Positions 2 through 61,583 of a stretch of DNA of 61,583 nt are shown one piece after another. The stretch comes from a virus. Its lineage: Duplodnaviria; Caudoviricetes. The stretch is from the IMG/VR virus record IMGVR_UViG_3300025085_000018, positions 1-61,583 of that record; one strand, given 5' to 3'. The notes below the pieces were generated by a model. It did not search any database and was not told where the DNA came from. It saw only the letters and a list, made by a program, of their open reading frames with translations. Position 1 is the first letter of the stretch, and each line of letters starts with the position of its first letter. The translations under genes were made by a program, and so were the position numbers.

Positions 2-3000
2 GAAATATTATCCGATATTGGAGCAGTTGCTCCTAGTACATTAGGAAGTTATTTGCCACTAACAGCTGGGTCGACTAAAAAACTTACAGATACTTTATAT
101 ATACAAGGCACAAATACAACTAACGCAGAGTCTGTATTAGTTAGGGGTGTATCATCTAATGACGGAGATTGGTTGGGTAGTATAAGAACAGCAAATACAG
201 GCGGTTATAACCAAGAAATGAGGTTTTATACATCTGATGCAAATGGAACAACTAATGAAAATTTAACTTTAACTTTAAGTCCTAATAAAAACGCTACTTT
301 TGCTGGAGCAGTTTCTACAGGTGGTTATTTAACATTAAATGCAGCAGATAATATTCCAAGATTAGTTTTCAATGGCGGTGGAGATGACTTCATGTTTAGC
401 AATACTGCGAATTATTTTGGTTTATATAATGATACCGATAGTAGATGGGACATTCAAGTAGATGGTGCAGGTAACACAACTTTTTCAGGTGATGTAACAG
501 TTGGGGGTAACCTAATTGTTAATGGTACAACCACTACATTAAACACTACAACCGTAGAAGTTGAAGATAATATACTACAGCTTAATACCACACAAGGAAC
601 ACCAGATACTGCGACAGCAGCTACATCTGGTATCTCTGTTTATAGAGGTGATGGTGTTACACAAGCAAGTTTAATATTTGATGATGCAGATGACACTTGG
701 GATTTAACTAATAATTTAAATATTGGTGGCAACTTTGTTAGCTCTGGCTATGTTCAAGCTTTTGGTTTGTTGTACTTAAGGTCTAGTGTTGAAGTAATGA
801 ACAAAGCTGCTGATGGGTTTTTAAGTCTTGCTACAAGAAACACTAGTGGTAATGAAGCAGTATATGATTTATCAAATATAGGAACGTTAAGCACCTCTGG
901 TAACGCAACGTTTGCAGGTGCTGTAATTATTGAAGGTGGAACTTTAGAGATAGGTAAAGCAGATACAGCATCTGGTCATATTAATGCTAAAGAGTTAATG
1001 ACATTTAATATTGACACAGACAATGATGATACTAATAGATATTTTGCTTGGTATAAAGATAGTTCTTCTGGTAGCGGTACTGAACTTTTTAAAATTGAAG
1101 AAAGTGGTAACGCAACTTTTGCAGGTAATGTATACTTAAAAGCTGCATCAAATGAAGGTAACTTATTTTTTGGGACTGCTGATGCTAATTATAAGATTTT
1201 TGGTGGTGGTACTTACGGTTATATGGGGTATAACACAGGTGGTTATCATAGATTTTTAATAAACGGCTCAGAAAAATTTAAAATAAATAGTTCCGGTAAT
1301 TCAATCTTTTCAGGTAATATAGTACTTCCAGGAGAAGAATCTAATAATTTTAAAATAGCATTTACCGGTGCATCTGCTAGTTCAGGTTTATCTACAGTAG
1401 ATCAAAGTGGAGCGGGATTATATATAGGAGCAAATTCAAGAGTAAATAATTCTGGTAATGTTGTTTATGACAATTCTGCATTACCAAGTAGTGGTATATA
1501 TTTTGATGGATGGAACGGTGATGATATGGAGTTTTATACCGGAACATCAGGAAACCCTTCTAAAAGACTTACAATCTCAGGTGCAGGAGATGCCAATTTT
1601 TTAGGCAAAATAGGTATTGGAACGACAACTGCTCCTACATACGATATAGATATACATAATAACAACGGTAGAATTAGAATGCTGGGTAGTACTGGATATC
1701 TTTCTTTAGATTTACAAAATAATGGTCAAAGTTTTTATTTATCACGAAACGGTGCTACAGTAGATTCTTTTGCAACCGGCAATACTGCTTATGCTGGTAT
1801 TTTAGCAGTTCAAGGTAATTATAATTTAGAATTTGCTACGAATGGCGTTGTTAGACAAACTATTAATGGTTCTGGAAACGTTGGTATAGGTGTTGACCCA
1901 TCTGGCAATACAGATAGGCTTCAAATAGATAATCCCGCAAATCCTACATCTATTAGAATAGGTGATAATACAACTGATGACTGTTACGTTATATTTAATA
2001 CAGACGGAAATGACTGGAGCATAGGAACAGACAGAAGCGATAGTAATAAATTTAAAATATCTGACTACAGTAGAGTTGGTACAAATGATAGGTTTGTAAT
2101 AGATACTTCTGGAAAAGTAGGAATAGGAACTACTAATCCTGGTACAGCTTTACAAGTTGGTGGATTAGATGACGGTAGCAACTACGATATAACATTAGGT
2201 TGGAACGCAGTTAACACTCAAGCTGTAGGTACTAAAAGATCCGCTTTAACTTTTAAGACTAGTCAAACAGGAGTTAACAACTTAGATATATACAAGTGGG
2301 ATATAGCTATGGTAACAGCTCCCGCAACTGCCGCAAACGAGCCTTTTGGTTCTGATTTAGCTTTTTTAAGAAGCACTAGAAATTCAACATCTGTTGATGA
2401 AACAACCATGATACTCACACAGTTAGGCAACGTAGGAATTGGGGTTACTGACCCTCAAGCAAAACTAGAGGTTAAGGGCACTAGCGCTACACCTGCGGAT
2501 GGAAATGAAATAATTTCTGTGACTAATACGACTGGAGGATCTAAATTACTTTTAGGAGTTGTAGAAAATAGCTATAGTTGGATTCAATCTGCAGAAGGTG
2601 GAACTTTAAGAAATTTATTATTAAATCCTAGCGGTGGAAACGTAGGTATCGGGACGACTAGTCCTAGTAGTAAACTAGAAGTTAATAGTACTTCAAATTC
2701 AGAACCGCATATACTAGTTAAAAAACAAACTCCCGGTGGTGGCGCTGAAATACTATTTGAACATAATAGCGGCGCTACTCAAAACGCTAGTATTAAATAT
2801 ACTCAAAATGGTGATAATCAATTATATATCACAACTAATTACGATTCACCAAATGATTTAAATAGAATATATTTCCAACCAGGAGGTGAAACTGCTATGA
2901 CAATTAGAGGTGGAAGTAACGCAACTGGAAATGCAGGTAACGTAGGTATAGGTACTACTAGTCCTGTCTCAAAACTACAAGTTACTGGTGGTATACAAAT

Positions 3001-3529
3001 GGCTAATGATACAGCCACAGCTTCAGCAGATAAAGTAGGTACAATGCGATATAGAACTGATACAGAATATGTAGAGGTTGATGGAGAAGAGTTAGTTACT
3101 AATGGTGGTTTTGATACTGATAGCGATTGGACTAAAGGAACTGGTTGGACTATTAGTGGGGGAAAAGGCAACGGAGCCTCAGCTGGAGGTGATTTAACTC
3201 AAACAATTTCAATTTCAGTAAATAAAACATATAAAGTAACTTATACAATATCTAATTACATATCAGGCATATTCCGAATAATTTTAGGAGGATATACAGC
3301 AGGCACTAATAGAAATGCAAATGGAACTTACACTGATATTATAACGGTTACAAACGCAAGTTCGAATTCACTTTTATATCTTGCAGGTGATGTAAGTGCT
3401 GTTACTTTATCTATAGACAACGTATCTGTAATAGAAGTAACAGAAGAAGACGCAAGCTACGCAGATATGTGTATGCAAACAGGTAGTTCAACATACGAAT
3501 GGGTTAACATAGTAAGAAATACATATTAA
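2..3529 (+). CDS. Tail fibre / receptor-binding protein 1 (5'-truncated)
   Basis: Frame is open from position 2 (EILSDIGAVAPSTLGSYLPLT...), so the true start lies upstream of the window. Gly/Thr/Asn-rich, with about six G(N/K)(V/I)GIG repeats and GNATFAG repeats; C-terminal ELVTNGGFDTDSDW carbohydrate-binding-like module. Confidence 0.85.
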   Translation, partial: EILSDIGAVAPSTLGSYLPLTAGSTKKLTDTLYIQGTNTTNAESVLVRGVSSNDGDWLGSIRTANTGGYNQEMRFYTSDANGTTNENLTLTLSPNKNATFAGAVSTGGYLTLNAADNIPRLVFNGGGDDFMFSNTANYFGLYNDTDSRWDIQVDGAGNTTFSGDVTVGGNLIVNGTTTTLNTTTVEVEDNILQLNTTQGTPDTATAATSGISVYRGDGVTQASLIFDDADDTWDLTNNLNIGGNFVSSGYVQAFGLLYLRSSVEVMNKAADGFLSLATRNTSGNEAVYDLSNIGTLSTSGNATFAGAVIIEGGTLEIGKADTASGHINAKELMTFNIDTDNDDTNRYFAWYKDSSSGSGTELFKIEESGNATFAGNVYLKAASNEGNLFFGTADANYKIFGGGTYGYMGYNTGGYHRFLINGSEKFKINSSGNSIFSGNIVLPGEESNNFKIAFTGASASSGLSTVDQSGAGLYIGANSRVNNSGNVVYDNSALPSSGIYFDGWNGDDMEFYTGTSGNPSKRLTISGAGDANFLGKIGIGTTTAPTYDIDIHNNNGRIRMLGSTGYLSLDLQNNGQSFYLSRNGATVDSFATGNTAYAGILAVQGNYNLEFATNGVVRQTINGSGNVGIGVDPSGNTDRLQIDNPANPTSIRIGDNTTDDCYVIFNTDGNDWSIGTDRSDSNKFKISDYSRVGTNDRFVIDTSGKVGIGTTNPGTALQVGGLDDGSNYDITLGWNAVNTQAVGTKRSALTFKTSQTGVNNLDIYKWDIAMVTAPATAANEPFGSDLAFLRSTRNSTSVDETTMILTQLGNVGIGVTDPQAKLEVKGTSATPADGNEIISVTNTTGGSKLLLGVVENSYSWIQSAEGGTLRNLLLNPSGGNVGIGTTSPSSKLEVNSTSNSEPHILVKKQTPGGGAEILFEHNSGATQNASIKYTQNGDNQLYITTNYDSPNDLNRIYFQPGGETAMTIRGGSNATGNAGNVGIGTTSPVSKLQVTGGIQMANDTATASADKVGTMRYRTDTEYVEVDGEELVTNGGFDTDSDWTKGTGWTISGGKGNGASAGGDLTQTISISVNKTYKVTYTISNYISGIFRIILGGYTAGTNRNANGTYTDIITVTNASSNSLLYLAGDVSAVTLSIDNVSVIEVTEEDASYADMCMQTGSSTYEWVNIVRNTY
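1313..1576 (+). repeat. ~88-codon module shared between the two tail fibre genes (copy 1; copy 2 at ~5675-5938)
   Basis: PGEE.N.FKIAFTGASASSG.STVDQSGAGLYIGANSRVN.SGNVVY..SALPSSGIYFDGWNGDDMEFYTG.SGNP.KRLTI occurs in both ORFs. Confidence 0.95.
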
Positions 3530-9685: not shown

Positions 9686-11239
9686 ATGGACGGAATTGTC
9701 AAAAACCTTAGCTTTGGTGACGAAGCTAAACAAAAGGTATTTAAAGGAATAGATAAACTCACTAAAGCTGTTAGCTCTACATTAGGGGCTAGCGGCAAGT
9801 GTGTTATCATGGAGGATAACTCTGGTGTTCCTATAATAACAAAAGATGGTGTAACAGTAGCTAATTCTGTTATACTAAGAGATCCTGTAGAAAATATGGG
9901 TGCTACGTTATTAAAAGAAGCAGCTAGAAAAACAGTAAGAGAAGCTGGCGACGGTACAACTACAGCTACAGTATTAGCACACTCAATAATGAATAGTGCT
10001 AAAAGTAGTGATAGAAAAGTAAGAGATGGTATATCATCTGGTGTAGATAAAGTTATTGATTACTTAAAATCTATATCAATACCTGTAAAAGGTAAAATGA
10101 TTGATGACATAGCTACTATATCTACAAATAACGACAAAGAACTTGGTAAATTAATAGCTGATGCTTTTAGATCAGTTGGCCAAACAGGTGTTGTTACTAT
10201 GGAGCCATCAGAAGGTGGTTTAACAGAAGTTGAAATAGTAGAAGGTGTTGAGTACGAAAAAGGTTTTTCTCACGGTGAATTTATAACAGATAAAGACAAA
10301 GGTACAGCTGAGCTAGACAATGCTTTAGTTTTACTTATGGATTCTAAGATAGATTCAATAAGACAAATACAACCAGTACTAGAACATGTTATAAAAGGTA
10401 ACAAGGCTTTGTTAATTATTGGTGAAGTTGAAGCTGGTGTTTTATCAGCTCTTGTAATGAACAAGAAAAAAGGTAATATAAAAATAAATGTTATAGAACC
10501 ACCTGCTTTTGGATTAAGAAGAAAAGAAATATTTAACGACTTATCTTTATTAACAGGAGCAACTATTATAAACGAAGATTTAGGTGATGATTTAAACACT
10601 ATACAAGTTAATTATCTTGGTAAATGTGTTAAGTCAACATCCACTCAAGATGAAACTATTATACAAATAAATGATGTGTCTGAAGAGGTAGACGATATAA
10701 TAGAAAAAATAAAAAAAGATTTAAAAAAGAAAAATAAAGCACATATTCAAATTGGTCTTGAAAAAAGATTAGCTAGATTAAGTGCAAAAGTAGCAATAGT
10801 TAAAATTGGTGCTAATTCTGATATTGAATTAAAAGAAAAAAGTGATAGAGTCGAAGATGCTATTTGTGCTACTAAAGCTGCTATTAAAGAAGGTATTGTA
10901 CCAGGTGGTGGTATTGCTTTGCTTAACGCTTCTAGTGTTTTAAAACCTGAGAACAAAGGTGAAGAAGTATTACTTGAAGCTATAAAAGCACCGTTTAACA
11001 CATTATTAAGTAATGCCGGTATAGTTTTAACGTCTGAACAATTAAAAAATTTACATTCAAACGAAGGTAAAGGATTAGATGTGGTTACAGGAAATATGGT
11101 AAATATGGTAAAGCTAGGTATTATAGATCCATTACTGGTAACAAAAAGCGCTTTAATAAACGCAGCTTCTGTAGCTACTACAATACTTTCAACTGATTGT
11201 GTAATAAATAACATGAGGATAGATGAAGGCAATAGGTAG
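9686..11239 (+). CDS. groEL: Chaperonin GroEL (phage-encoded)
   Basis: ITKDGVTVA, GDGTTTATVLA, EDAICATKAAIKEGIVPGGG and GIIDP motifs; no C-terminal GGM tail. Confidence 0.97.
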   Translation: MDGIVKNLSFGDEAKQKVFKGIDKLTKAVSSTLGASGKCVIMEDNSGVPIITKDGVTVANSVILRDPVENMGATLLKEAARKTVREAGDGTTTATVLAHSIMNSAKSSDRKVRDGISSGVDKVIDYLKSISIPVKGKMIDDIATISTNNDKELGKLIADAFRSVGQTGVVTMEPSEGGLTEVEIVEGVEYEKGFSHGEFITDKDKGTAELDNALVLLMDSKIDSIRQIQPVLEHVIKGNKALLIIGEVEAGVLSALVMNKKKGNIKINVIEPPAFGLRRKEIFNDLSLLTGATIINEDLGDDLNTIQVNYLGKCVKSTSTQDETIIQINDVSEEVDDIIEKIKKDLKKKNKAHIQIGLEKRLARLSAKVAIVKIGANSDIELKEKSDRVEDAICATKAAIKEGIVPGGGIALLNASSVLKPENKGEEVLLEAIKAPFNTLLSNAGIVLTSEQLKNLHSNEGKGLDVVTGNMVNMVKLGIIDPLLVTKSALINAASVATTILSTDCVINNMRIDEGNR

Positions 11240-27397: not shown

Positions 27398-30300
27398 ATG
27401 GCTGAAATTAAAAATAGTTTCATTAGGTCTAAAATGAATAAAGATTTAGACGAGAGACTAATACCAAACAATGAATACAGAGATGCTTTAAACGTAGCTG
27501 TCTCTAGGTCAGAAGCTAGTGATGTTGGTGCTTTAGAGTCTATATTAGGTAACTTCCTAAGAATAGACAACGGTAATATAAATATAGAAATAATAGGTGT
27601 ATACGTAGATCAAAGCAGAGGTTTAGCTTATTATTTTGCAACAGATCACTCTGGTACAGCACAAGCTCCTCTTTCTGCTAGTTGTTTTATTGCGGTATAT
27701 AATACAGCTAGTAACAACTCTACTAAATTAGTTTCTGGTAGTTGGTTAAATTTTTCAAAAGATTTCCCAGTACATGGTATAAGCTTGATAGAAGATTTAT
27801 TGTTTTTTAGTGATAACAATAATCAACCTAGAAAAATAAATATAACTAAAGACTTTGGTTATTATAATAGTGAAGATCAAATATCTGTAGCTAAGTTCGC
27901 GCCATATTTGGCGGCTGAATTTATAGATTTAAGATCAAACTCTTTATTAAAACCATCTACAATGTCTGATGCTTCTGATCCTTTGCAAACAAACATAGGC
28001 TCTATAACAGTATCAGCAGTTAATCTAAATGTTTCTAGCTATAGAAACGGTGATCCTATACCTGAAGCTCAGTCAAACCAAGCTTGGGCAGACGCAGACG
28101 CTAACGAACAAGGTGCTTGGTGTTATTATGAAAACTCATTAGCTAATGGATCAGTTTACGGTAAACTTTATAATAGATATGCTATAGAAGACCCTAGAGG
28201 TTTAGCGCCTATTGGTTTTAATGTTATACCATCAGGTGTATGGAGCAGTGATATAATAAGTGGTACAACTCCAGCTACAAGACTTAAATCAACAACTTCT
28301 TGGGATGCTAATCCTGGTACTAACACTACAGGTTTTAATGTTCTAGCTGCTGGTCATAGAGACGCTGCTGGAACTTTTGCTGGTTTAGGTACGGAAGCTA
28401 GATTTTGGGCAAGAGAAGATACAACACCTACCCCACCTTTGAGTGCTACTGGTGATTACATATTGATGACGTCTGCTGATCAAGCGGCTACAAAATTATC
28501 TGCAGCACCAGAAGCTGACAACATAAATGGTTATTCTGTTAGATTACTTAAAGATGCTGGTTATAATGGCTGGAACGGTGATCCAGATTATTTAAGAGAT
28601 AAATTTGTAAAATTTAGTTATAGATTTAAATTTGATGACAACGAGTATTCTGTTGTAGCTCCCTTTAGTCAAGATGTTTTTATTCCAGAACAAGAAGGGC
28701 AGTTTTTAAATGATGATGAAACAAAAGCTTTTGTCTCTACGGTTGTAGAGTTTATGCAAAATTCTATAAACAATGCTATATTAAATATAACACTACCTAG
28801 TCTAAATATATTAACAGATTACAAAATAAAAGGTATAGATATATTATTTAAACAATCTGACACACAAGCTTATCAAATACTAGAATCTATAGTTGTTGAT
28901 CAATCTTTTATAGATAATTTAAATAATACTAATATATATCAATACGACTATCAGTCTACATTACCAATAAAAACATTACCATCTCAAGAAGCGGCTAGAG
29001 TTTTTGATAAAGTGCCTGTAACTTCTTTAGCACAAGAAACATCAGGCAACAGAATAATGTATGGTAATTTTGTGCAAGGTAAAAGCGGGCAAAAAGGTTT
29101 AGATTACTATGTAGATATAGCTGAAAAAGACAATCAAATATTTACAGAATATCCTCAGCACTCATTAAAGCAAAATAGAAATTATCAGGTTGGTGTAATT
29201 TTAGCTGATAAATTTGGTAGACAAACAGATATAATATTATCAAACTATGATAACTTATTAGATTCAGAAGGTAATCCACAACCAGGTTCTAATGTTTTTA
29301 GTAACTATAATAATGTATCGTTTAACGGTAGTGTTGCTGGTTGGCAAGGTGATACTTTAAAAATAAACTTTAATAGTTTAATACCTGAACTAGCTAACGC
29401 TAACAATGTTAGTGGTTATCCAGGTGTTTACGCTATTGGTAATTATTACACTATCACTACAGCTTCAGTATCTTATCCTATATTTTTTAGGGACCTATCA
29501 ACTCAATCTATAACATCTACAGCTAATCAAACTGTTTTTGTATTTAATGGTTTAGTTTATGACGATGCGATTCAAGCTAGCAATTCTTATTGTGTTTATA
29601 AAAACATAGGTGATGGTTTTATAAAATTAGAATCATCAGAATACTCTATTGTAGATGATGGTAATGATCAACCTCAAGTTACTCTCGCTTCAGGTGCAAA
29701 TCTAGGAGATGTAATAAAGTTTGAATTATTGTTTACAGCAGATAACTATTATAAATATCAAACAGGAACTACTAACGCTGCGCAGCCTTTATTCCAAGAT
29801 TTTGAAACAACTTATCAAAATTATTTTACTATAGGTAAAACGTTTGCAGGTTTATTTACTGACTATGTAGACATTAAAACTGTAACAACTATCGGTACAC
29901 CTGTTACTTCTGTTGAAGTTTTTACAAACCAAGAGGTTGCTGAAAAGTATTTATTTGATAATACAAGTACTGGTAGACCTGAACCAGCACTAACAACTAA
30001 TGATTTACCTAGATCTTACGCTACTTATGATATAAATGTAGATGGCTTTTATAGCTATAGAATAGGTGTTAAACAGCAACAACAAGATTATTACAATGTA
30101 TATTTACCTGGTTTTGTTAATGGTTATCCTATAGATGGTTCAACATTAGAACAAGGTGAAACAGCTTTTACAACGTTAGTATCTGATAATATAAACAAAT
30201 TACCTAGAAACCTACAAGAGGTTGGGCCGCTGCAAAATCAGTTTACAAGTGATGAAAGAGTTTTCCCAAGAGTAACTAATACAGTTCAAGTAACATCTAC

Positions 30301-47137: not shown

Positions 47138-48856
47138 CTAACCATCACAAGACAAACAATCTTCATTCATTGCTTGTTGTGCGATATCTCCACGTAAGAC
47201 AGATTCTGTCCTCGTATAATATAAGGTTTTAACACCTTTTTTCCACGCTTCAAAATGTACTTTATTAAGCCATTTAGGCGTTGCTTCACTAGGGAAAGCT
47301 AAGTTCAAACTTACCGACTGGTCAACGTACTCTTGTCTAAGTCCAGCTTGATTAACTAACTCTAGCTGATTTATTTCTTTAAAAGTTTTAAAAACTTCCT
47401 TAGCAGATATACCGTGTCCCACTTTAATATCTTCAAGCTCAGGTATGTCTTGAACAGAACCTCCATCAGCAAGAATTTTATCCCATATTTCATTTGTATT
47501 TATTTTATGTTTTCTTAATAATTTTAATAGCGTAGGGTTTTTACGTATAAAAGTACCTTTAGCAGACTGCTCTGTAAATACATTTGCGGCCCAAGGTTCT
47601 ATACCCGCTGAAACATTCCCACTAAGCTTACTGTTAGAAACAGTGGGAGCAACAGCACGTAAATGAGTATTACGCATGCCAGTTCCAACACACCATAAAG
47701 GTTCTCCGTAAGTCTCTGCAAGTGCCATACTAGCCCTTTCGCTTTCAATTTTAATTTGACTAAATACTTTCCTAGTTTCAAACTGAGATAGTAAACCTTC
47801 GAATGGTAGTCCTTTTTCTTGTAAGTATGTGTGCCAGCCCAAAACTCCCAAGCCAAGCGCTCTTCCTTTCGTAGCTGACCTAACCGCATTTTCAAAGCCT
47901 CGTAAGCCTTTAGCTCGTTGTATAAACTCTTCCATGACTCCATCAAGGAACCATATACTGTCATAAATAAGGTTAGTACCTTTCCATTCTTCATACTTTG
48001 CTAAATTTAATGATGATAAACAACAAACAAAACTATGATTCTCATCGGTATGTAGTGTTATTTCTGAACATATATTAGTCATATGCACTTTTAAGCCATT
48101 TTCTTTATAAGCTTTAGGGTTCTTCTTGTTAACATTCCCTTTAAACATAATGTACGGTTCTCCAGTTGCTTTTCGCTTTCTAAGAAGTTTACTCCATCTA
48201 GCTCTAGCAACCGTATCTCCTTGTTCAAGTTTACGCATAAACTTATCGCCAACAACTGCGCACTGATGTAAGTTAAGCGACTGTCTGTTAATGTCTCCTT
48301 TAGGTTCTCTAATTTCAAGCCACTCCTCAAAATCTCCGTGCTCAATGTTGATGTTAACTGATGCAGCTCCTCTTCTAACTGATCCTTGATTAGTGGCAAG
48401 TATTGTTGAATCGTATATTTTACAAAAAGGGACGACTCCGTCTGATGTTCCATTTCCTGTTATTCTAGCGCCGGCGGGTCTTATTTGATTAATTCCGACA
48501 CCAACTCCACCGCCGTGCTTAGCGAGTAGCATCATCTCTAAATTTTTACTTCCTATATCTTGTATACTATCAGCCACATCAATACCGAAACAGCTAATAG
48601 GCAAACCGCGATCAGTACCTGTATTAGATAGTACTGGGCTAGCGAGACAAAGCCAACCATTCCATATGTACTCGAAGAAAGTTTCTGCCATTTCTGGTTT
48701 ATATAATCTACGAGCAACCGTTTTAGCGACTCTTTTGTATGCTTCACGAGGCGTTTCTCCGTCAAATAGATATCCCCCGGATATAGTCTTCTTGTATACG
48801 TCTGTATTACCCCACGCAGGGTAATCTTCTCCTTTAATCCATTCATTATTCCACAT
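47138..48856 (-). CDS. nrdA: Class I ribonucleotide reductase alpha subunit (no ATP cone)
   Basis: PISCF, TNICSEI (thiyl Cys), VAPTVSNS, KTLYY, C-terminal CLSCDG; start moved to ATG 48856 (MWNNEW). Confidence 0.95.
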   Translation of the reverse strand: MWNNEWIKGEDYPAWGNTDVYKKTISGGYLFDGETPREAYKRVAKTVARRLYKPEMAETFFEYIWNGWLCLASPVLSNTGTDRGLPISCFGIDVADSIQDIGSKNLEMMLLAKHGGGVGVGINQIRPAGARITGNGTSDGVVPFCKIYDSTILATNQGSVRRGAASVNINIEHGDFEEWLEIREPKGDINRQSLNLHQCAVVGDKFMRKLEQGDTVARARWSKLLRKRKATGEPYIMFKGNVNKKNPKAYKENGLKVHMTNICSEITLHTDENHSFVCCLSSLNLAKYEEWKGTNLIYDSIWFLDGVMEEFIQRAKGLRGFENAVRSATKGRALGLGVLGWHTYLQEKGLPFEGLLSQFETRKVFSQIKIESERASMALAETYGEPLWCVGTGMRNTHLRAVAPTVSNSKLSGNVSAGIEPWAANVFTEQSAKGTFIRKNPTLLKLLRKHKINTNEIWDKILADGGSVQDIPELEDIKVGHGISAKEVFKTFKEINQLELVNQAGLRQEYVDQSVSLNLAFPSEATPKWLNKVHFEAWKKGVKTLYYTRTESVLRGDIAQQAMNEDCLSCDG

Positions 48857-48858
48857 AT

Positions 48859-49104
48859 TTATCCTATAAAGTGTTTTGTCCAAGCAACTAAACCGTTTAA
48901 GTTTAGTATAACTAAGTTCCATTGTTTTCTTGATGATGTCTGTATCATGACGCATATAAATCCTATTATAAATAATCTAGGATCTAACGTCCATTGTCCT
49001 GCTATCAAAAAAGCTGCGCCAAAGTATCCTATACGTGACGCAAACTTTTGATATGATGTAAGCTTATTTGTATAAGCTAATATCTTTAATAATTTTCTAT
49101 TCAT
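48859..49104 (-). CDS. Small multi-pass membrane protein between nrdB and nrdA
   Basis: Hydrophobic segments IGYFGAAFLIAG, LFIIGFICVMI and LVILNLNGLVAW; start coupled to the nrdB stop. Confidence 0.7.
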   Translation of the reverse strand: MNRKLLKILAYTNKLTSYQKFASRIGYFGAAFLIAGQWTLDPRLFIIGFICVMIQTSSRKQWNLVILNLNGLVAWTKHFIG

Positions 49105-58503: not shown

Positions 58504-58610
58504 TAGTATCTTCGTTTGCTTGTTCTGTTATAATGTGCATCTAATAATAAGTGTACTACCTCTTCGCTTATCATATTGTCATTGTATAGTTGGTATATTA
58601 ACTTACTCAT
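58503..58610 (-). CDS. Small hypothetical protein (35 aa)
   Basis: MSKLIYQLYNDNMISEEVVHLLLDAHYNR...; overlaps both neighbours. Confidence 0.55.
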   Translation of the reverse strand: MSKLIYQLYNDNMISEEVVHLLLDAHYNRTSKRRY

Positions 58611-59445
58611 AATTACGTATAGCTTTAAATTGTGGATGTCTGTAACTACCTGCTGGAGTACGTTCGAAATATGTAAACGTAGCTGTTTTGCCTATATAGT
58701 CATGAATATTATTTAGTATATTGGTTAACATACTATAGTCATAGCCCTTACCTGGAGGACAACCGAACTCTATGCCTTCATCATCAATCATTAAGAACTT
58801 ACCTAACGTGCCTGTACGCTTACCTTTACCTGGCACATAGCCTACAATAGTAGCCTCTGTGTCATGAAAGTCTTTGAACTTTTGTAAATTGTAAGAACGC
58901 TTACGTTGATAAGGCTCATCTAGACGTAGTATAGAACCTTCGTAACCATCTTTTAAATTGGTTTCATGTAATTCTTTAGCGCCTTTGTAAGAATATACGA
59001 GCTTAGTAGGTACGTATTTTACACAATAAGAATAAAAATCACTACAAACAAGGTTGTTCATACGTGAGCTGTAGTTTTCTTGTGTATTAGCATAGTCGTA
59101 GCAATGAAATTGTACTAGTTTAGCAGCCTCAGATCTGTCTAGATCAGTTGGTTTAGTTTTTCTGACTAATGATATAATCTTATTGAAATCGTCTCTTAGA
59201 TCATGATTATACAATTCACCGTCTAGTATCATGTCTGGATTTAAGTCAAATGAAGGTTTTAAATCTTCTAGTATGTGAGCTATATTTAGCCACGGTTTAC
59301 CTGTACGAGAGTATGCATATACTTCACCTTTGTCATTTAACTGAATTATACAGCGAACGCCGTCTAATTTTGGTTGCATAAATACTTTCTCGGACCAGTC
59401 GATTGGTTTTTTGTCGACTTTGTATGCGAGCATTGGTTTTATCAT
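58603..59445 (-). CDS. ATP-dependent DNA ligase
   Basis: KPMLA, QPKLDGVR, LDGELY, EGSILR, LQKFK, YRHP. Confidence 0.95.
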   Translation of the reverse strand: MIKPMLAYKVDKKPIDWSEKVFMQPKLDGVRCIIQLNDKGEVYAYSRTGKPWLNIAHILEDLKPSFDLNPDMILDGELYNHDLRDDFNKIISLVRKTKPTDLDRSEAAKLVQFHCYDYANTQENYSSRMNNLVCSDFYSYCVKYVPTKLVYSYKGAKELHETNLKDGYEGSILRLDEPYQRKRSYNLQKFKDFHDTEATIVGYVPGKGKRTGTLGKFLMIDDEGIEFGCPPGKGYDYSMLTNILNNIHDYIGKTATFTYFERTPAGSYRHPQFKAIRNYE

Positions 59446-59446
59446 A

Positions 59447-59689
59447 TTATTTAAATTTATTTAGTTTATTTTCTATTACTGCTATTCTGTTTTTAATTCT
59501 TTCACACTGACTATAGTTTTCTTTTTTTAGATTATAATCTAATTCTGTCATAGCTTGTGCTAATTGAGTTAATAATAACTGTTCTTCTGTTTCTTCATCT
59601 TCTAAAGATACTAATTCACTTTGAATTATACCTTCTAGCACTAATTCAGAAACTTTTTGTGCTATTTTGTTAATTTCATCATCTGTCAT
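59447..59689 (-). CDS. Small protein with UVR (UvrB/C-like) coiled-coil motif
   Basis: L...LKKENYSQCERIKNRI; start moved to MTDDEI at 59689, just downstream of a promoter-like motif. Confidence 0.55.
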   Translation of the reverse strand: MTDDEINKIAQKVSELVLEGIIQSELVSLEDEETEEQLLLTQLAQAMTELDYNLKKENYSQCERIKNRIAVIENKLNKFK

Positions 59690-59692
59690 ATA

Positions 59693-59727
59693 TATATTAT
59701 CTAATTTTATCTGTATTTTGTTTGTAA
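59693..59727 (-). promoter_or_regulatory. Candidate early/middle promoter TTACAAAC-WAAATACA-N10-GATAATATA (copy 1)
   Basis: Same bipartite motif with identical spacing at 61190-61224. Confidence 0.65.
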
Positions 59728-60167
59728 AAATTCCAATCAGTGTAATCCATGTTGTTATCATACTTTTCTATAACTTTATCTACAGGTAAAACAAAAACGT
59801 TTACTTGTTTATAATTGTTATAGCAACTTATCCATACATCAGGCTTACCTGTCCATAGTATATAAGTGTAATGATGATCAATACTTTTTACACTAGGATA
59901 TAAATATTGACTATTGTAATGAAAATCTTTAACTAAGTGTGATGCTATTCGTGATCCATCACCAAAGTTAGTAAATCCTTGATCTTGCTGCATATGCTTT
60001 ACCCAATTAGCTAACTGTACACCCTGCCATTGAGGGTAACCGTCGTGATGTAAATACATATTTACATAGCTTTTGTCACGTAATAAAGCTGGTTCGCATG
60101 CAAAACCTAGTTCGTTGTGTTCAGCATCTGACCTGTCTACAACCATTGTTAAGTTTCTTGTACTCAT
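59697..60167 (-). CDS. Hypothetical early protein
   Basis: MSTR...YLHHDGYP...G..L motif common in phage early regions. Confidence 0.75.
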   Translation of the reverse strand: MSTRNLTMVVDRSDAEHNELGFACEPALLRDKSYVNMYLHHDGYPQWQGVQLANWVKHMQQDQGFTNFGDGSRIASHLVKDFHYNSQYLYPSVKSIDHHYTYILWTGKPDVWISCYNNYKQVNVFVLPVDKVIEKYDNNMDYTDWNFYKQNTDKIR

Positions 60168-60187
60168 TGTTTATTATTTAATATTAG

Positions 60188-60261
60188 GTGCGCAGGGAGG
60201 ATTCGAACCTCCGACCTCGAGTTTATGAGACTCGCGAGCTAACCATCTGCTCTACCGCGCA
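60188..60261 (-). tRNA. tRNA with CAT anticodon (Met-type, atypical)
   Basis: TGCGCGG TA GAGC AGATGGTTA GCTC G CGAGT CT-CAT-AA ACTCG AGGTC GGAGG TTCGAAT CCTCC CTGCGCA C; full cloverleaf, CCA not encoded. Confidence 0.93.
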
Positions 60262-60266
60262 ATTAC

Positions 60267-60728
60267 TTATAATTTTTGTTCTACGTAACCTTCGTCAATA
60301 AGAACGTCTATTATTTCTTGTTCTTGTATCTCACAAATACTTTGATATATTTCACTAAACATATCGCTTAGCCAATATTCATCTGTGAAATCACTAGCTA
60401 CGTATATTTCTTCGCAACTACCATCTCTTATAGCACTTTCTAATTCTGTTGATAAACCACCGTCATAGTAGTGCACATGTTCGTTTACACATATGTTTCT
60501 ATCGTCATATGTAGCTATAAAAACTTCATAACCATCTGCTGTTGTTTCAGGATATACATAGTAATCTGCATTACTAGTATAATCATCGTGCATAATAACG
60601 TCATAGTATTTTAATACTGTTGATTTTATAAAATCTTCATCGCTTATTCTATCGTCGTCTGACGTAGGAAAGCCTAGTTTTATCATTTTTGATTCAACTA
60701 TCTCGTCTGTAATAATTTTTTTACTCAT
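60267..60728 (-). CDS. Highly acidic hypothetical protein
   Basis: 153 aa, very Asp/Glu-rich. Confidence 0.75.
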   Translation of the reverse strand: MSKKIITDEIVESKMIKLGFPTSDDDRISDEDFIKSTVLKYYDVIMHDDYTSNADYYVYPETTADGYEVFIATYDDRNICVNEHVHYYDGGLSTELESAIRDGSCEEIYVASDFTDEYWLSDMFSEIYQSICEIQEQEIIDVLIDEGYVEQKL

Positions 60729-60939
60729 TTAATTCTATTAATTTTGCAATATGACTCCATACTTGCAGTTCTACTTTAGTGCCTCTGTATACACTCCTTA
60801 ATTCTTCTATAGTTATACCACCTGTGAGTCCGTTTTTTAAGTCGTCTTTAAGCTTATCAATCTCAATTTTAAGCATTGTGATTTTAGCAAAAGCTTTTCT
60901 TGACGCTCTTTGTGATATTTCGTAGTTTGAAACTCTCAT
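60721..60939 (-). CDS. Hypothetical protein
   Basis: Coupled ORF in the early operon. Confidence 0.65.
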   Translation of the reverse strand: MRVSNYEISQRASRKAFAKITMLKIEIDKLKDDLKNGLTGGITIEELRSVYRGTKVELQVWSHIAKLIELNE

Positions 60940-61172
60940 TACTTTACGATTTTGTTACCATACATAAAGCTTAAATTGTCTAGTTTCCAAGAATCTAGAT
61001 CACCATATGTCAATAGATCTCTAACCTCGTCAATTGTTAGTTCTGACCACATTAACTTTGACATTAACGTGTACTTTAATCTTTTAGCTGAGCTGTATTT
61101 TCTTGCGCTAGCTTGTAAACTTGTTTTAACGTCGGGCAATAGATTGTCGTAGACGGTTTTCATTTTTGTCAT
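60939..61172 (-). CDS. Hypothetical protein
   Basis: First ORF downstream of the promoter-like motif at 61190-61224. Confidence 0.65.
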   Translation of the reverse strand: MTKMKTVYDNLLPDVKTSLQASARKYSSAKRLKYTLMSKLMWSELTIDEVRDLLTYGDLDSWKLDNLSFMYGNKIVK

Positions 61173-61189
61173 ATTTATTATTATTTAGT

Positions 61190-61224
61190 TATATTATCAA
61201 AATACATTTGTATTTAGTTTGTAA
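61190..61224 (-). promoter_or_regulatory. Candidate early/middle promoter (copy 2)
   Basis: TTACAAACTAAATACA-AATGTATTTT-GATAATATA, ending 17 nt upstream of ATG 61172. Confidence 0.65.
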
Positions 61225-61229
61225 TAAGT

Positions 61230-61308
61230 TACCGGCTGTCACTACGACTGGCTTTGTACAATTGATACCTCGAAGAAGCCGAGACGTCGATTTACTGTTA
61301 GGCCGGTA
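61230..61308 (-). ncRNA. Putative structured ncRNA A (79 nt, bulged rod)
   Basis: Nested stems TACCGGC/GCCGGTA, CGAC/GTCG, GGCTT/AAGCC, GTAT/GTAC. Confidence 0.55.
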
Positions 61309-61316
61309 TTATATTA

Positions 61317-61404
61317 AGAGAGATGTGCCCACGAAGTACTTCGCTTACGTAAATCCGCCGTGTTTGTTTGGACAAGTATATCTCTGCATATCTGCCATCT
61401 CTCT
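61317..61404 (-). ncRNA. Putative structured ncRNA B (88 nt)
   Basis: 9-bp closing stem AGAGAGATG/CATCTCTCT, inner TGTCCA/TGGGCA and CGAA-GTAC-TTCG hairpin. Confidence 0.5.
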
Positions 61405-61409
61405 GTTAG

Positions 61410-61488
61410 TGGAAGTGGGCGGAATCGAACCGCCGTTTAAGTTAGTGTGACTTTCGCCTCCTATTTCTTAGCTTACCTTATCACTCCC
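61410..61488 (-). ncRNA. tmRNA-like RNA reduced to the tRNA-like domain (element C, 79 nt)
   Basis: Acceptor GGGAGTG/CACTTCC + A73 with G3-U70; stemless D-loop; helix 2 capped by GAAA; 3-nt linker AAC; T-arm GGCGG-TTCGATT-CCGCC. Confidence 0.75.
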
Positions 61489-61491
61489 TTT

Positions 61492-61569
61492 TCGAGGCAC
61501 CAGTCGCGGACCGGTACTAACTAGTATTATGCTTTATCCGCGCTTTTGACCAGTATGCCGCCGCCTCGA
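61492..61569 (-). ncRNA. Putative structured ncRNA D (78 nt, bulged rod)
   Basis: Nested stems TCGAGGC/GCCTCGA, ACTGGTC/GACTGGT, GCGGA/TCCGC, TACT/AGTA. Confidence 0.6.
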
Positions 61570-61583
61570 TTGCTAGCTATTCA

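Follow-up and report, generated by a model that had tools for sequence, protein, structure and literature searches.

Known tag-less and full-length tmRNAs

The properties of the transfer-messenger RNA (tmRNA) that consists of a tRNA-like domain (TLD) only, as in mycobacteriophage DS6A, reportedly go back to Mao et al. 2009, the source cited for them. DS6A is entered as 'TLD only' by Hudson, Lau and Williams (PMC4131195), its form inhibits endogenous tmRNA in E. coli (PMC11915505), and these two papers describe a DS6A-like molecule as alanylated, bound by SmpB and inhibitory to endogenous tmRNA, the phage case receiving a sentence or two and a table entry (PMC4131195, PMC11915505). The second paper also describes tmRNAs without a coding sequence (CDS) in jakobid mitochondria and Mallomonadaceae plastids (~65 bp), where they occur alongside SmpB (PMC11915505). 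Here we describe a 79-nt element, which we read as the probable gene of a TLD-only mini-tmRNA, on the minus strand (61488..61410, from G1 to A73) of IMG/VR virus record IMGVR_UViG_3300025085_000018. The window analysed is this whole record, which is linear, 61,583 bp long and 95% complete according to CheckV. The first-pass annotation of this DNA, made from its letters alone, had already proposed such an RNA and had named the tag-less tmRNAs of some protist mitochondria as precedents; it had missed the phage case mentioned in PMC4131195 and PMC11915505, and because DS6A is in print, the novelty is lower than first assumed. Our literature searches on marine phage or flavophage mini-tmRNAs returned only these two papers for the kind (their supplements and Mao et al. 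2009 lying outside the scope), and they found no paper that describes the marine phage family, its subtypes, its tandem copies or its exchange of hairpins.

Like the TLD-only molecule of DS6A, the window element consists of the two ends of a tmRNA joined by a short helix, falls within about 65-110 nt and has no tag frame. Both are about 80 nt long and combine a G3:U70 acceptor, a stemless D-loop, a short helix 2 and a T arm, and in both A73 is followed by CUA. On the 60.6-kb DS6A genome (JN698994), the covariance model that we built for the marine family (R1, see below) yielded an 80-nt locus at 28478-28557 as its sole match, at 24.8 bits, and the Rfam tmRNA model RF00023 likewise aligned the two ends of this locus, at 43.2 bits. 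DS6A is a GC-rich temperate mycobacterial phage with an annotated tyrosine integrase and is a single reported case, whereas the marine form occurs in at least 45 AT-rich marine phage records, in at least four subtypes and occasionally in tandem copies; its helix 2 varies extremely and exchanges hairpins with other scaffolds, and its gene lies within an array of other small structured RNAs. The CDS-less tmRNAs of organelles, as presented in PMC11915505, share with the window element the reduction to a TLD and the lack of a tag frame. They differ from it in that the window form is viral and must use the SmpB of its host; the comparison draws on their published description.

Full-length tmRNAs of 362 nt are found in the cultured Cellulophaga phages phi38:1 (KC821614, 26803-27164, minus strand) and Calle_3 (MT732434, 42950-43311, plus strand), which belong to Callevirus, infect the same host class and have large terminases 36.5-36.6% identical to that of the window; one tmRNA has been recorded in phage Calle (PMC8776804). 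Both RNAs score 87 bits against RF00023, above its gathering threshold, and contain a tag frame predicted by ARAGORN. They share with the marine family G3:U70, the Bacteroidia-type D-loop that is also found in subtype 4 and an A-CUA 3' end, and have about 300 nt where the window RNA has 34. The predicted tag is unusual in that it ends in GV, not AA. The tmRNAs of Bacteroidia (RF00023), which we sampled as the tmRNA genes of 30 genomes of the host class (L177-L206), have in common with the window RNA G3:U70, A73, a stemless D-loop with GG, a UUCGAnU T loop and, in 27 of 30, the absence of an encoded CCA; unlike them, the window RNA is without the pseudoknots (PK1-4), the resume codon and the tag frame. 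The mini form may plausibly have arisen from host ssrA by way of a phage tmRNA.

Fold, family and ancestry of the element

The minus strand of 61410-61488 agrees letter for letter with the sequence first given for it. The proposed structure is the unconstrained minimum-free-energy (MFE) fold of this RNA (-22.7 kcal/mol, z -2.32), although 3 of 200 shuffled sequences equalled it, so that the fold alone is weak evidence. The acceptor stem comprises 7 bp, with A73 and with G3:U70, the alanine identity pair. A stemless D-loop with GG, annotated at first as 11 nt long, is indeed present, as 10 nt plus one bulged C; nine of its ten columns are identical in all 22 aligned sequences and the remaining one is at least 90% identical. 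The central helix is closed by a GAAA tetraloop, as the first-pass annotation had seen, while it had missed that this is a swappable hairpin common to a second scaffold. With neither an anticodon loop nor a D stem, the element lacks what defines a tRNA (RF00005), and the stretch between the D-loop and the linker, only 34 nt long, contains no mRNA-like domain, the part that would bring a resume codon, a tag frame and a stop.

Subsequently, relatives were collected by several routes. An exact 22-mer, covering the 3' part of the T arm and the acceptor 3' strand, identified 19 loci in viral contigs, and in 17 of them the 5' strand and D-loop recur unchanged at the expected distance; the other two are a tRNA and a true permuted tmRNA with the tag ANDEQFALAA (L005). 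A search with 14 bases of the 5' end gave at least 118 stretches, mostly chance matches, among which at least 13 further loci bear the element, with C in place of U in the T loop. As both searches fix the acceptor strands, loci were also gathered through a neighbouring gene, which encodes a conserved 77-aa protein and follows the RNA block, and this route, independent of the RNA sequence, provided 26 loci. The covariance model R1, built from 22 members (alignment A1), matched 23 of these 26 at 26.5 bits or more; one more has the 3' end only, at its contig start, and in L134 and L143 the model found no element. Over 55 sources, R1 gave 54 matches, 36 of them distinct, carried by at least 43 IMG/VR contigs from 36 datasets, by a 903-bp contig filed under a metagenome-assembled genome (MAG; L129) and by the window.

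Paired cells amounted to 98.5% of 594 in the family alignment, against 77.6% after shuffling (none of 500 shuffles reached the observed value) and 44-58% in slid registers; the alignment is fitted to the model and hence biased towards its structure, and the margin is large nonetheless. Compensatory changes were observed in 9 of the 17 modelled pairs, namely in all five pairs of the basal helix 2, in three of the five of the T stem and at acceptor pair 4:69, which is AU in 27, CG in 7 and GC in 2 of the 36 distinct sequences. At 3:70, G:U is present in 33 of 36, A:U in two and no pair in one, and G:C never occurs. Both G3:U70 and helix 2, on whose conservation the first-pass annotation had staked its reading, are kept in the homologues, with covariation, and the predicted TLD architecture without an mRNA-like domain is borne out by the fold together with this covariation and by the RF00023 alignment described below. 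Judged by these sequences, the element is a conserved family and not a chance fold.

The protein-anchored loci revealed diverged subtypes, GGGCGUG/CACGUCC with the T stem GCAGG/CCUGC, GGGGGUG/CACCUCC with the T stem GACAG/CUGUC, and GGACGUG/CACGUCC with A3:U70; at least four acceptor/T-arm subtypes exist in the family. Subtypes 3 and 4 retain GAC at the end of the D-loop, with GGAC or GGAA. Two TLDs of different subtypes stand in tandem, with only CUA between them, in L154 (2398-2576) and L113 (79-257), which represent one contig, and one copy of the pair has A3:U70. Another contig (L153, 2335-2571) holds a pair of copies with some 70 nt between them, each defective in its acceptor or T stem.

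Scored alone, the element had RF00023 as its best model in the tRNA clan (28.1 bits, E 2.2e-10), with RF00005 ranking below it. Model positions 1-374 were aligned and 302 of them skipped, pseudoknots PK1-PK4 having no counterpart in the element; a match to the two tmRNA ends only had been foreseen from the letters, and this is what RF00023 returned. The permuted tmRNA model RF04321 matched the T arm only (11.8-24.6 bits), and the order of the element is the standard one, from 5' strand through T arm to 3' strand, not the permuted one. Moreover, the 22-mer has 12 exact matches in the genomes of 185,579 species, 11 of which are ARAGORN tmRNA genes with tag frames, and the 5' ends of these 11 closely resemble that of the mini form. 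Their sources are Saccharibacteria, other Patescibacteria, an unclassified uncultured bacterium, a Bacteroidaceae MAG and a Bacteroidales MAG; the 12th match is L129, another mini form. The D-loop of subtype 4 (L144, L147, L149), ACCUGGUUUUGAC, is that of the Bacteroidia tmRNAs L181, L182 and L186. We put the probability that the element is a phage gene for a tmRNA reduced to its TLD at about 0.9. As an observation in its own right, the 5,179-bp viral contig L005 holds its complete permuted two-piece tmRNA directly after a Gly-rich open reading frame (ORF), and the T arm and acceptor 3' strand of this RNA are the same as those of the window.

The part between the conserved flanks behaves differently. 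In 25 distinct type-1 sequences with identical flanks, the central segment, 28-132 nt long, is unalignable, and it folds alone with its ends paired in 23 of them. In L080 and L155 the window hairpin, altered at two positions that compensate each other, recurs within another scaffold (module A, described below), and an insert-bearing form of it lies inside module A of L084. Four other tips or inserts are common to TLDs and to module A or free modules, the TLD of L142 carries the core of a module that lies free downstream in the window, and inserts of 60-110 nt occupy the tetraloop position in L004, L007 and L157. Given this sharing between scaffolds, the distal hairpin behaves as exchangeable cargo.

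Proposed working and its alternatives

The large terminase of the window is 64% identical to that of an uncultured podovirus genome, 45% to those of Flavobacterium 'elemo' phages, 37-38% to those of Cellulophaga phages and 31% to that of Tenacibaculum phage Gundel; the host is likely a marine member of Flavobacteriia, an assignment drawn from terminase similarity only. Among 50,697 phage records, the 684-nt end of the window had no blastn match at E 1e-5, and the element alone had T-arm-sized partial matches, with 80% or more of it covered in none of 81 records. Five cultured relatives have no mini form by R1, whose two weak matches there are an ARAGORN-called tRNA-Asp and a terminator-like hairpin, and two of the five, phi38:1 and Calle_3, carry the full-length tmRNA; the records searched thus yielded no cultured carrier of the mini form. 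No marine Flavobacteriia genome is among the 12 prokaryote matches to the exact 22-mer, and none of the 30 sampled Bacteroidia tmRNAs has the acceptor GGGAGUG.

Across the family, the trailer after the element reads CTA in 52 of 56 copies and CAA in 4. Only 3 of the 30 Bacteroidia tmRNA genes encode CCA, so its addition after transcription is the host norm; the first trailer position is C in all 30. We rejected the idea that CUA marks a deliberately unchargeable RNA, since the other 27 host-class genes are also without CCA. The window contains no SmpB, no CCA-adding enzyme domain and no integrase domain, and for want of the first two the RNA must rely on host enzymes.

RNA libraries were also consulted. 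Among the runs listed, nine recorded as RNA contain 0.20-0.24 of the words sampled from the 684-nt end region, and five further ones, possibly RNA, contain 0.27-0.29. When 59500-61583 was compared with four marine RNA runs from four studies, all four showed contigs of at least 90% identity that cover the tRNA as well as portions of the RNA block. An 89-nt contig of run X9 spans 61408-61488 at a depth of 47, compared with 22-35 for the neighbouring modules and 17 for the nearest coding contig. Contigs that stem from relatives depart from the window at 61472, the start of the variable helix, and the two downstream modules are covered by short contigs, such as those of 74-75 nt at 61324-61397. 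These data lend weak support to transcription of the element. Contig cover is nearly absent at 60270-60899, which may reflect divergence of the relatives, and we did not use it as evidence.

The kept G3:U70, D-loop and T arm, the dependence on the host and the published inhibition by the DS6A form lead us to propose a host-matured RNA that is alanylated and competes with host tmRNA for SmpB, a working to which we give about even odds. The element would be transcribed on the minus strand together with the neighbouring small structured RNAs and tRNA genes and excised by the tRNA-maturation enzymes of the host, with RNase P cleaving at G1 and 3' trimming after A73. CCA would be added by the host enzyme, since none is encoded; the host alanyl-tRNA synthetase (AlaRS) would charge the RNA through G3:U70, and host SmpB would bind it, the phage encoding none. 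Carrying no message, the RNA might then rival host tmRNA in binding SmpB, and perhaps also EF-Tu and stalled ribosomes, and through such competition trans-translation and the tagging of proteins in the infected host would be damped or redirected.

Several points weigh against a reduced tmRNA that works in this manner. The element is dispensable, being absent from L143 and from L134, the closest relative by its neighbour protein (99%). Among the 36 distinct members there are two with A3:U70 and one in which 3:70 does not pair. Scores against RF00023 stay below the gathering threshold of 47 bits (28.1 for the window, 36.6 for L135 and 43.2 for DS6A), and the model also gives two-ends matches of 26-29 bits to bacterial loci of about 77 nt, such as G001 C2 70460-70536, which are probably tRNAs; a sub-threshold RF00023 score alone therefore does not identify a mini-tmRNA. 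The bases at the end of the D-loop and before the T arm matter for SmpB, and at these places all 30 Bacteroidia tmRNAs have GAC and GGAC, the type found in the window AAG and AAC, which may mean weaker SmpB recognition. The exchange of the central hairpin with other scaffolds hints at a function that lies in the cargo and suggests more than a sponge. Furthermore, the RNA evidence is made up of contigs without ends or strand, and DNA carry-over is possible, so it does not speak for a product of 80 nt. The analysis shows the sequence, a structure backed by covariation, descent from tmRNA and presence in RNA libraries, while maturation, charging, the binding of SmpB and any host effect are what we infer.

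Whether the element is a separate gene at all can be judged from its relatives. That it is the tail of a full-length tmRNA with its 5' part beyond the contig end, or else an attP-type ssrA fragment or a chance fold, is next to impossible, as the comparative data have already refuted this reading. It had in its favour that Rfam flags the match as cut at the 5' end once upstream sequence is included, and that the contig stops 95 nt upstream of the element. Because of this flag, longer relatives were checked upstream, where they carry hundreds to thousands of bases. ARAGORN in tmRNA mode, however, found no tmRNA in 55 family loci (448,706 nt), and the better 5' acceptor strand or full-length tmRNA upstream that the first-pass annotation had named as fatal to its own proposal did not appear; the element alone aligns to RF00023 at both ends, and its upstream neighbour varies, being module B, module A, another module or a coding region. 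The lack of an integrase domain in the window and of a second copy of the element among its listed repeats (20 direct and 25 inverted families) excludes the attP-type fragment, and the strong covariation in the family speaks against a chance fold. Two candidates for missing parts were also rejected, a 5' half reached by wrap-around, as the record is no longer than the window and opens within a long open frame (2..3529, plus strand), and a tag frame read by eye in the 95 nt upstream or in the downstream module, which is not conserved in relatives. The tRNA-like shape might alternatively be mere processing punctuation that supplies RNase P and 3'-end cleavage sites between small RNAs, for the element stands head to tail with structured RNAs and tRNAs, with spacers of 3-6 nt, and CUA alone can separate two TLDs (L154, L113). 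We hold this very unlikely: the tRNA genes of the same arrays could serve this end, neither the alanine identity nor the tmRNA-type D-loop would be needed, and in L016 the TLD comes straight after a coding region and lacks an upstream RNA module.

The remaining alternatives accept the gene and assign it other work. Under tag-less rescue, an alanyl-TLD with SmpB would enter ribosomes stalled on broken mRNAs of host or phage, accept the chain and free the ribosome without a degradation tag, a mechanism that has been proposed for the CDS-less tmRNAs of organelles. The retained alanine identity pair argues that charging matters, CDS-less tmRNAs persist with SmpB in jakobid mitochondria and Mallomonadaceae plastids according to PMC11915505, and related cultured flavophages carry full-length tmRNAs, which makes the supply of rescue RNA a theme of this phage group; yet no release route is known for a peptidyl-TLD without a stop codon, and the sole experimental precedent, given in PMC4131195 and PMC11915505, is inhibition, not rescue, so that we consider rescue unlikely. 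A role as bait or decoy, directed at host defence systems that cleave or recognise tRNA or tmRNA, would fit with expression in an early region with phage tRNAs and with the use of t(m)RNA-derived fragments in phage counter-defence (AcrIIIA1; PMC11662646), but the element lacks the anticodon loop at which tRNA nucleases usually aim, and no defence-related gene is linked to it here, which leaves this idea extremely unlikely. More tentatively than the competition for SmpB, the TLD can be imagined as a carrier, a stable processed handle or natural 'tRNA scaffold' whose displayed hairpins are the active parts. In the engineered 'tRNA scaffold' for recombinant RNAs, a foreign hairpin replaces the anticodon arm, and the cell processes and stabilises the product; that is a laboratory device on true tRNAs, whereas the marine element is natural and tmRNA-derived, the benefit here being one that we infer. 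The carrier idea draws on the unalignable helix 2 beyond its base in members with identical flanks, on the recurrence of the window hairpin and at least four other tips or inserts in module A or as a free module of other phages, and on the tolerance for long inserts at the tetraloop. A plain scaffold, however, needs neither G3:U70, which is nevertheless kept in 33 of 36, nor a tmRNA-type D-loop; the hairpins might be neutral filler that recombination between the conserved flanks has moved about, and no ligand or partner is known for any of them, and we regard the carrier as a doubtful possibility. A modular small-RNA system, in which an alanine-type TLD handle and a second, unrelated scaffold carry pooled and swapped cargo hairpins, is likewise conceivable but doubtful. 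If it were true, the handle would give the cargo tRNA-style processing and stability, possibly with delivery via SmpB and EF-Tu to stalled ribosomes, and the system would be the viral natural counterpart of the laboratory tRNA scaffold.

For the reduced tmRNA itself, these data indicate that the TLD-only design is conserved and under selection in widespread uncultured marine phages, probably of Flavobacteriia. Its natural variation shows which parts are fixed, namely the alanine identity pair, the D-loop and the T arm, and that helix 2 needs pairing only, the distal hairpin being free and exchangeable. The family makes it testable whether phages shut down or redirect host trans-translation by a cheap RNA sponge, and how small an SmpB- and AlaRS-competent tmRNA can be; the exchange of hairpins between two scaffolds, if functional, would represent a new viral way of building small RNAs. 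For annotation, both ARAGORN and Rfam at the gathering threshold miss these genes. In the window, the sole ARAGORN call is a tRNA-Met (60187-60261), Rfam at the gathering threshold reports the same tRNA only, and ARAGORN, one of the checks suggested in the first-pass annotation, called neither a tRNA nor a tmRNA on the element.

Features and surroundings of the element

Table 1. Parts of the mini-tmRNA candidate and the RNA modules around it in the window.
Feature	Position	Strand	Remarks
Whole TLD-only mini-tmRNA gene (probable)	61410..61488	minus	MFE fold; model R1 74.5 bits; RF00023 28.1 bits with the middle skipped
Acceptor stem, 5' strand GGGAGUG, G3 at 61486	61482..61488	minus	pairs with 61411-61417
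Stemless D-loop analogue, 10 nt, AUAAGGUAAG, with GG	61472..61481	minus	near-invariant in family
Helix 2 and cargo hairpin: bulged C, UAAG/CUUA, UAG/CUA, GGC-GAAA-GUC	61438..61471	minus	base covaries
Linker AAC	61435..61437	minus	AC invariant in family
T arm GGCGG-UUCGAUU-CCGCC	61418..61434	minus	3 of 5 stem pairs covary across subtypes
Acceptor stem, 3' strand CACUUCC (U70 at 61413), and discriminator A73 (61410)	61410..61417	minus	sequence; family alignment
3' trailer CUA instead of CCA	61407..61409	minus	CTA common across family
Structured RNA module B, 78 nt, not part of the TLD	61492..61569	minus	precedes the TLD in many relatives, not all
Two downstream structured RNA modules, outside the TLD	~61318-61403, ~61232-61306	minus	shuffled cassettes in relatives
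3' end of a further RNA, module A	61572-61583	minus	contig ends inside it

Around the element, the sequence is non-coding over more than 350 nt; this block reaches the contig end and has a GC content of 0.45-0.48, against about 0.30 in the adjacent genes. Module B, which belongs to no Rfam family, resembles a closed pseudoknot, with CUGGU/ACCGG and CGCGGA/UCCGCG interleaved inside a 7-bp closing stem; in the longer relatives L003 and L011, the corresponding pairings are CAGGU/ACCUG and GUGGA/UCCAC, compensatory by eye. The two downstream modules, situated between the TLD and the next gene, are not known to Rfam either. In relatives, module A has a variable hairpin and a small Cys-rich ORF upstream. 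As the contig ends inside module A, the RNA array is truncated in this record, and in L008 and L135 it extends upstream past the end of the window by one more module and, beyond that, a small Cys-rich ORF. Directly upstream of the TLD, a third module is found in L006, L013 and L014, and a coding region in L016.

The TLD-less loci L134 (~2754-2857) and L143 have another tRNA-like module of about 100 nt in their arrays, which also occurs in L006, L017 and L144-L146. It has the T arm GG-UUCGAAU-CC and an acceptor-like stem AACUAG/CUAGUU without G3:U70, and R1 does not match it. A promoter-like motif ahead of the next gene has 15 matches with two or fewer mismatches, against 7.1 expected, and none of 100 shuffles reached 15; only the match at 61189-61201 has a single mismatch, all others carrying two, and the motif was not used in the argument. 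Further genes of the window, as matched by PHROG, encode a GroEL-type chaperonin (9686-11239, plus strand), a ribonucleotide reductase large subunit (47138-48955, minus strand) and an ATP-dependent DNA ligase (58603-59445, minus strand).

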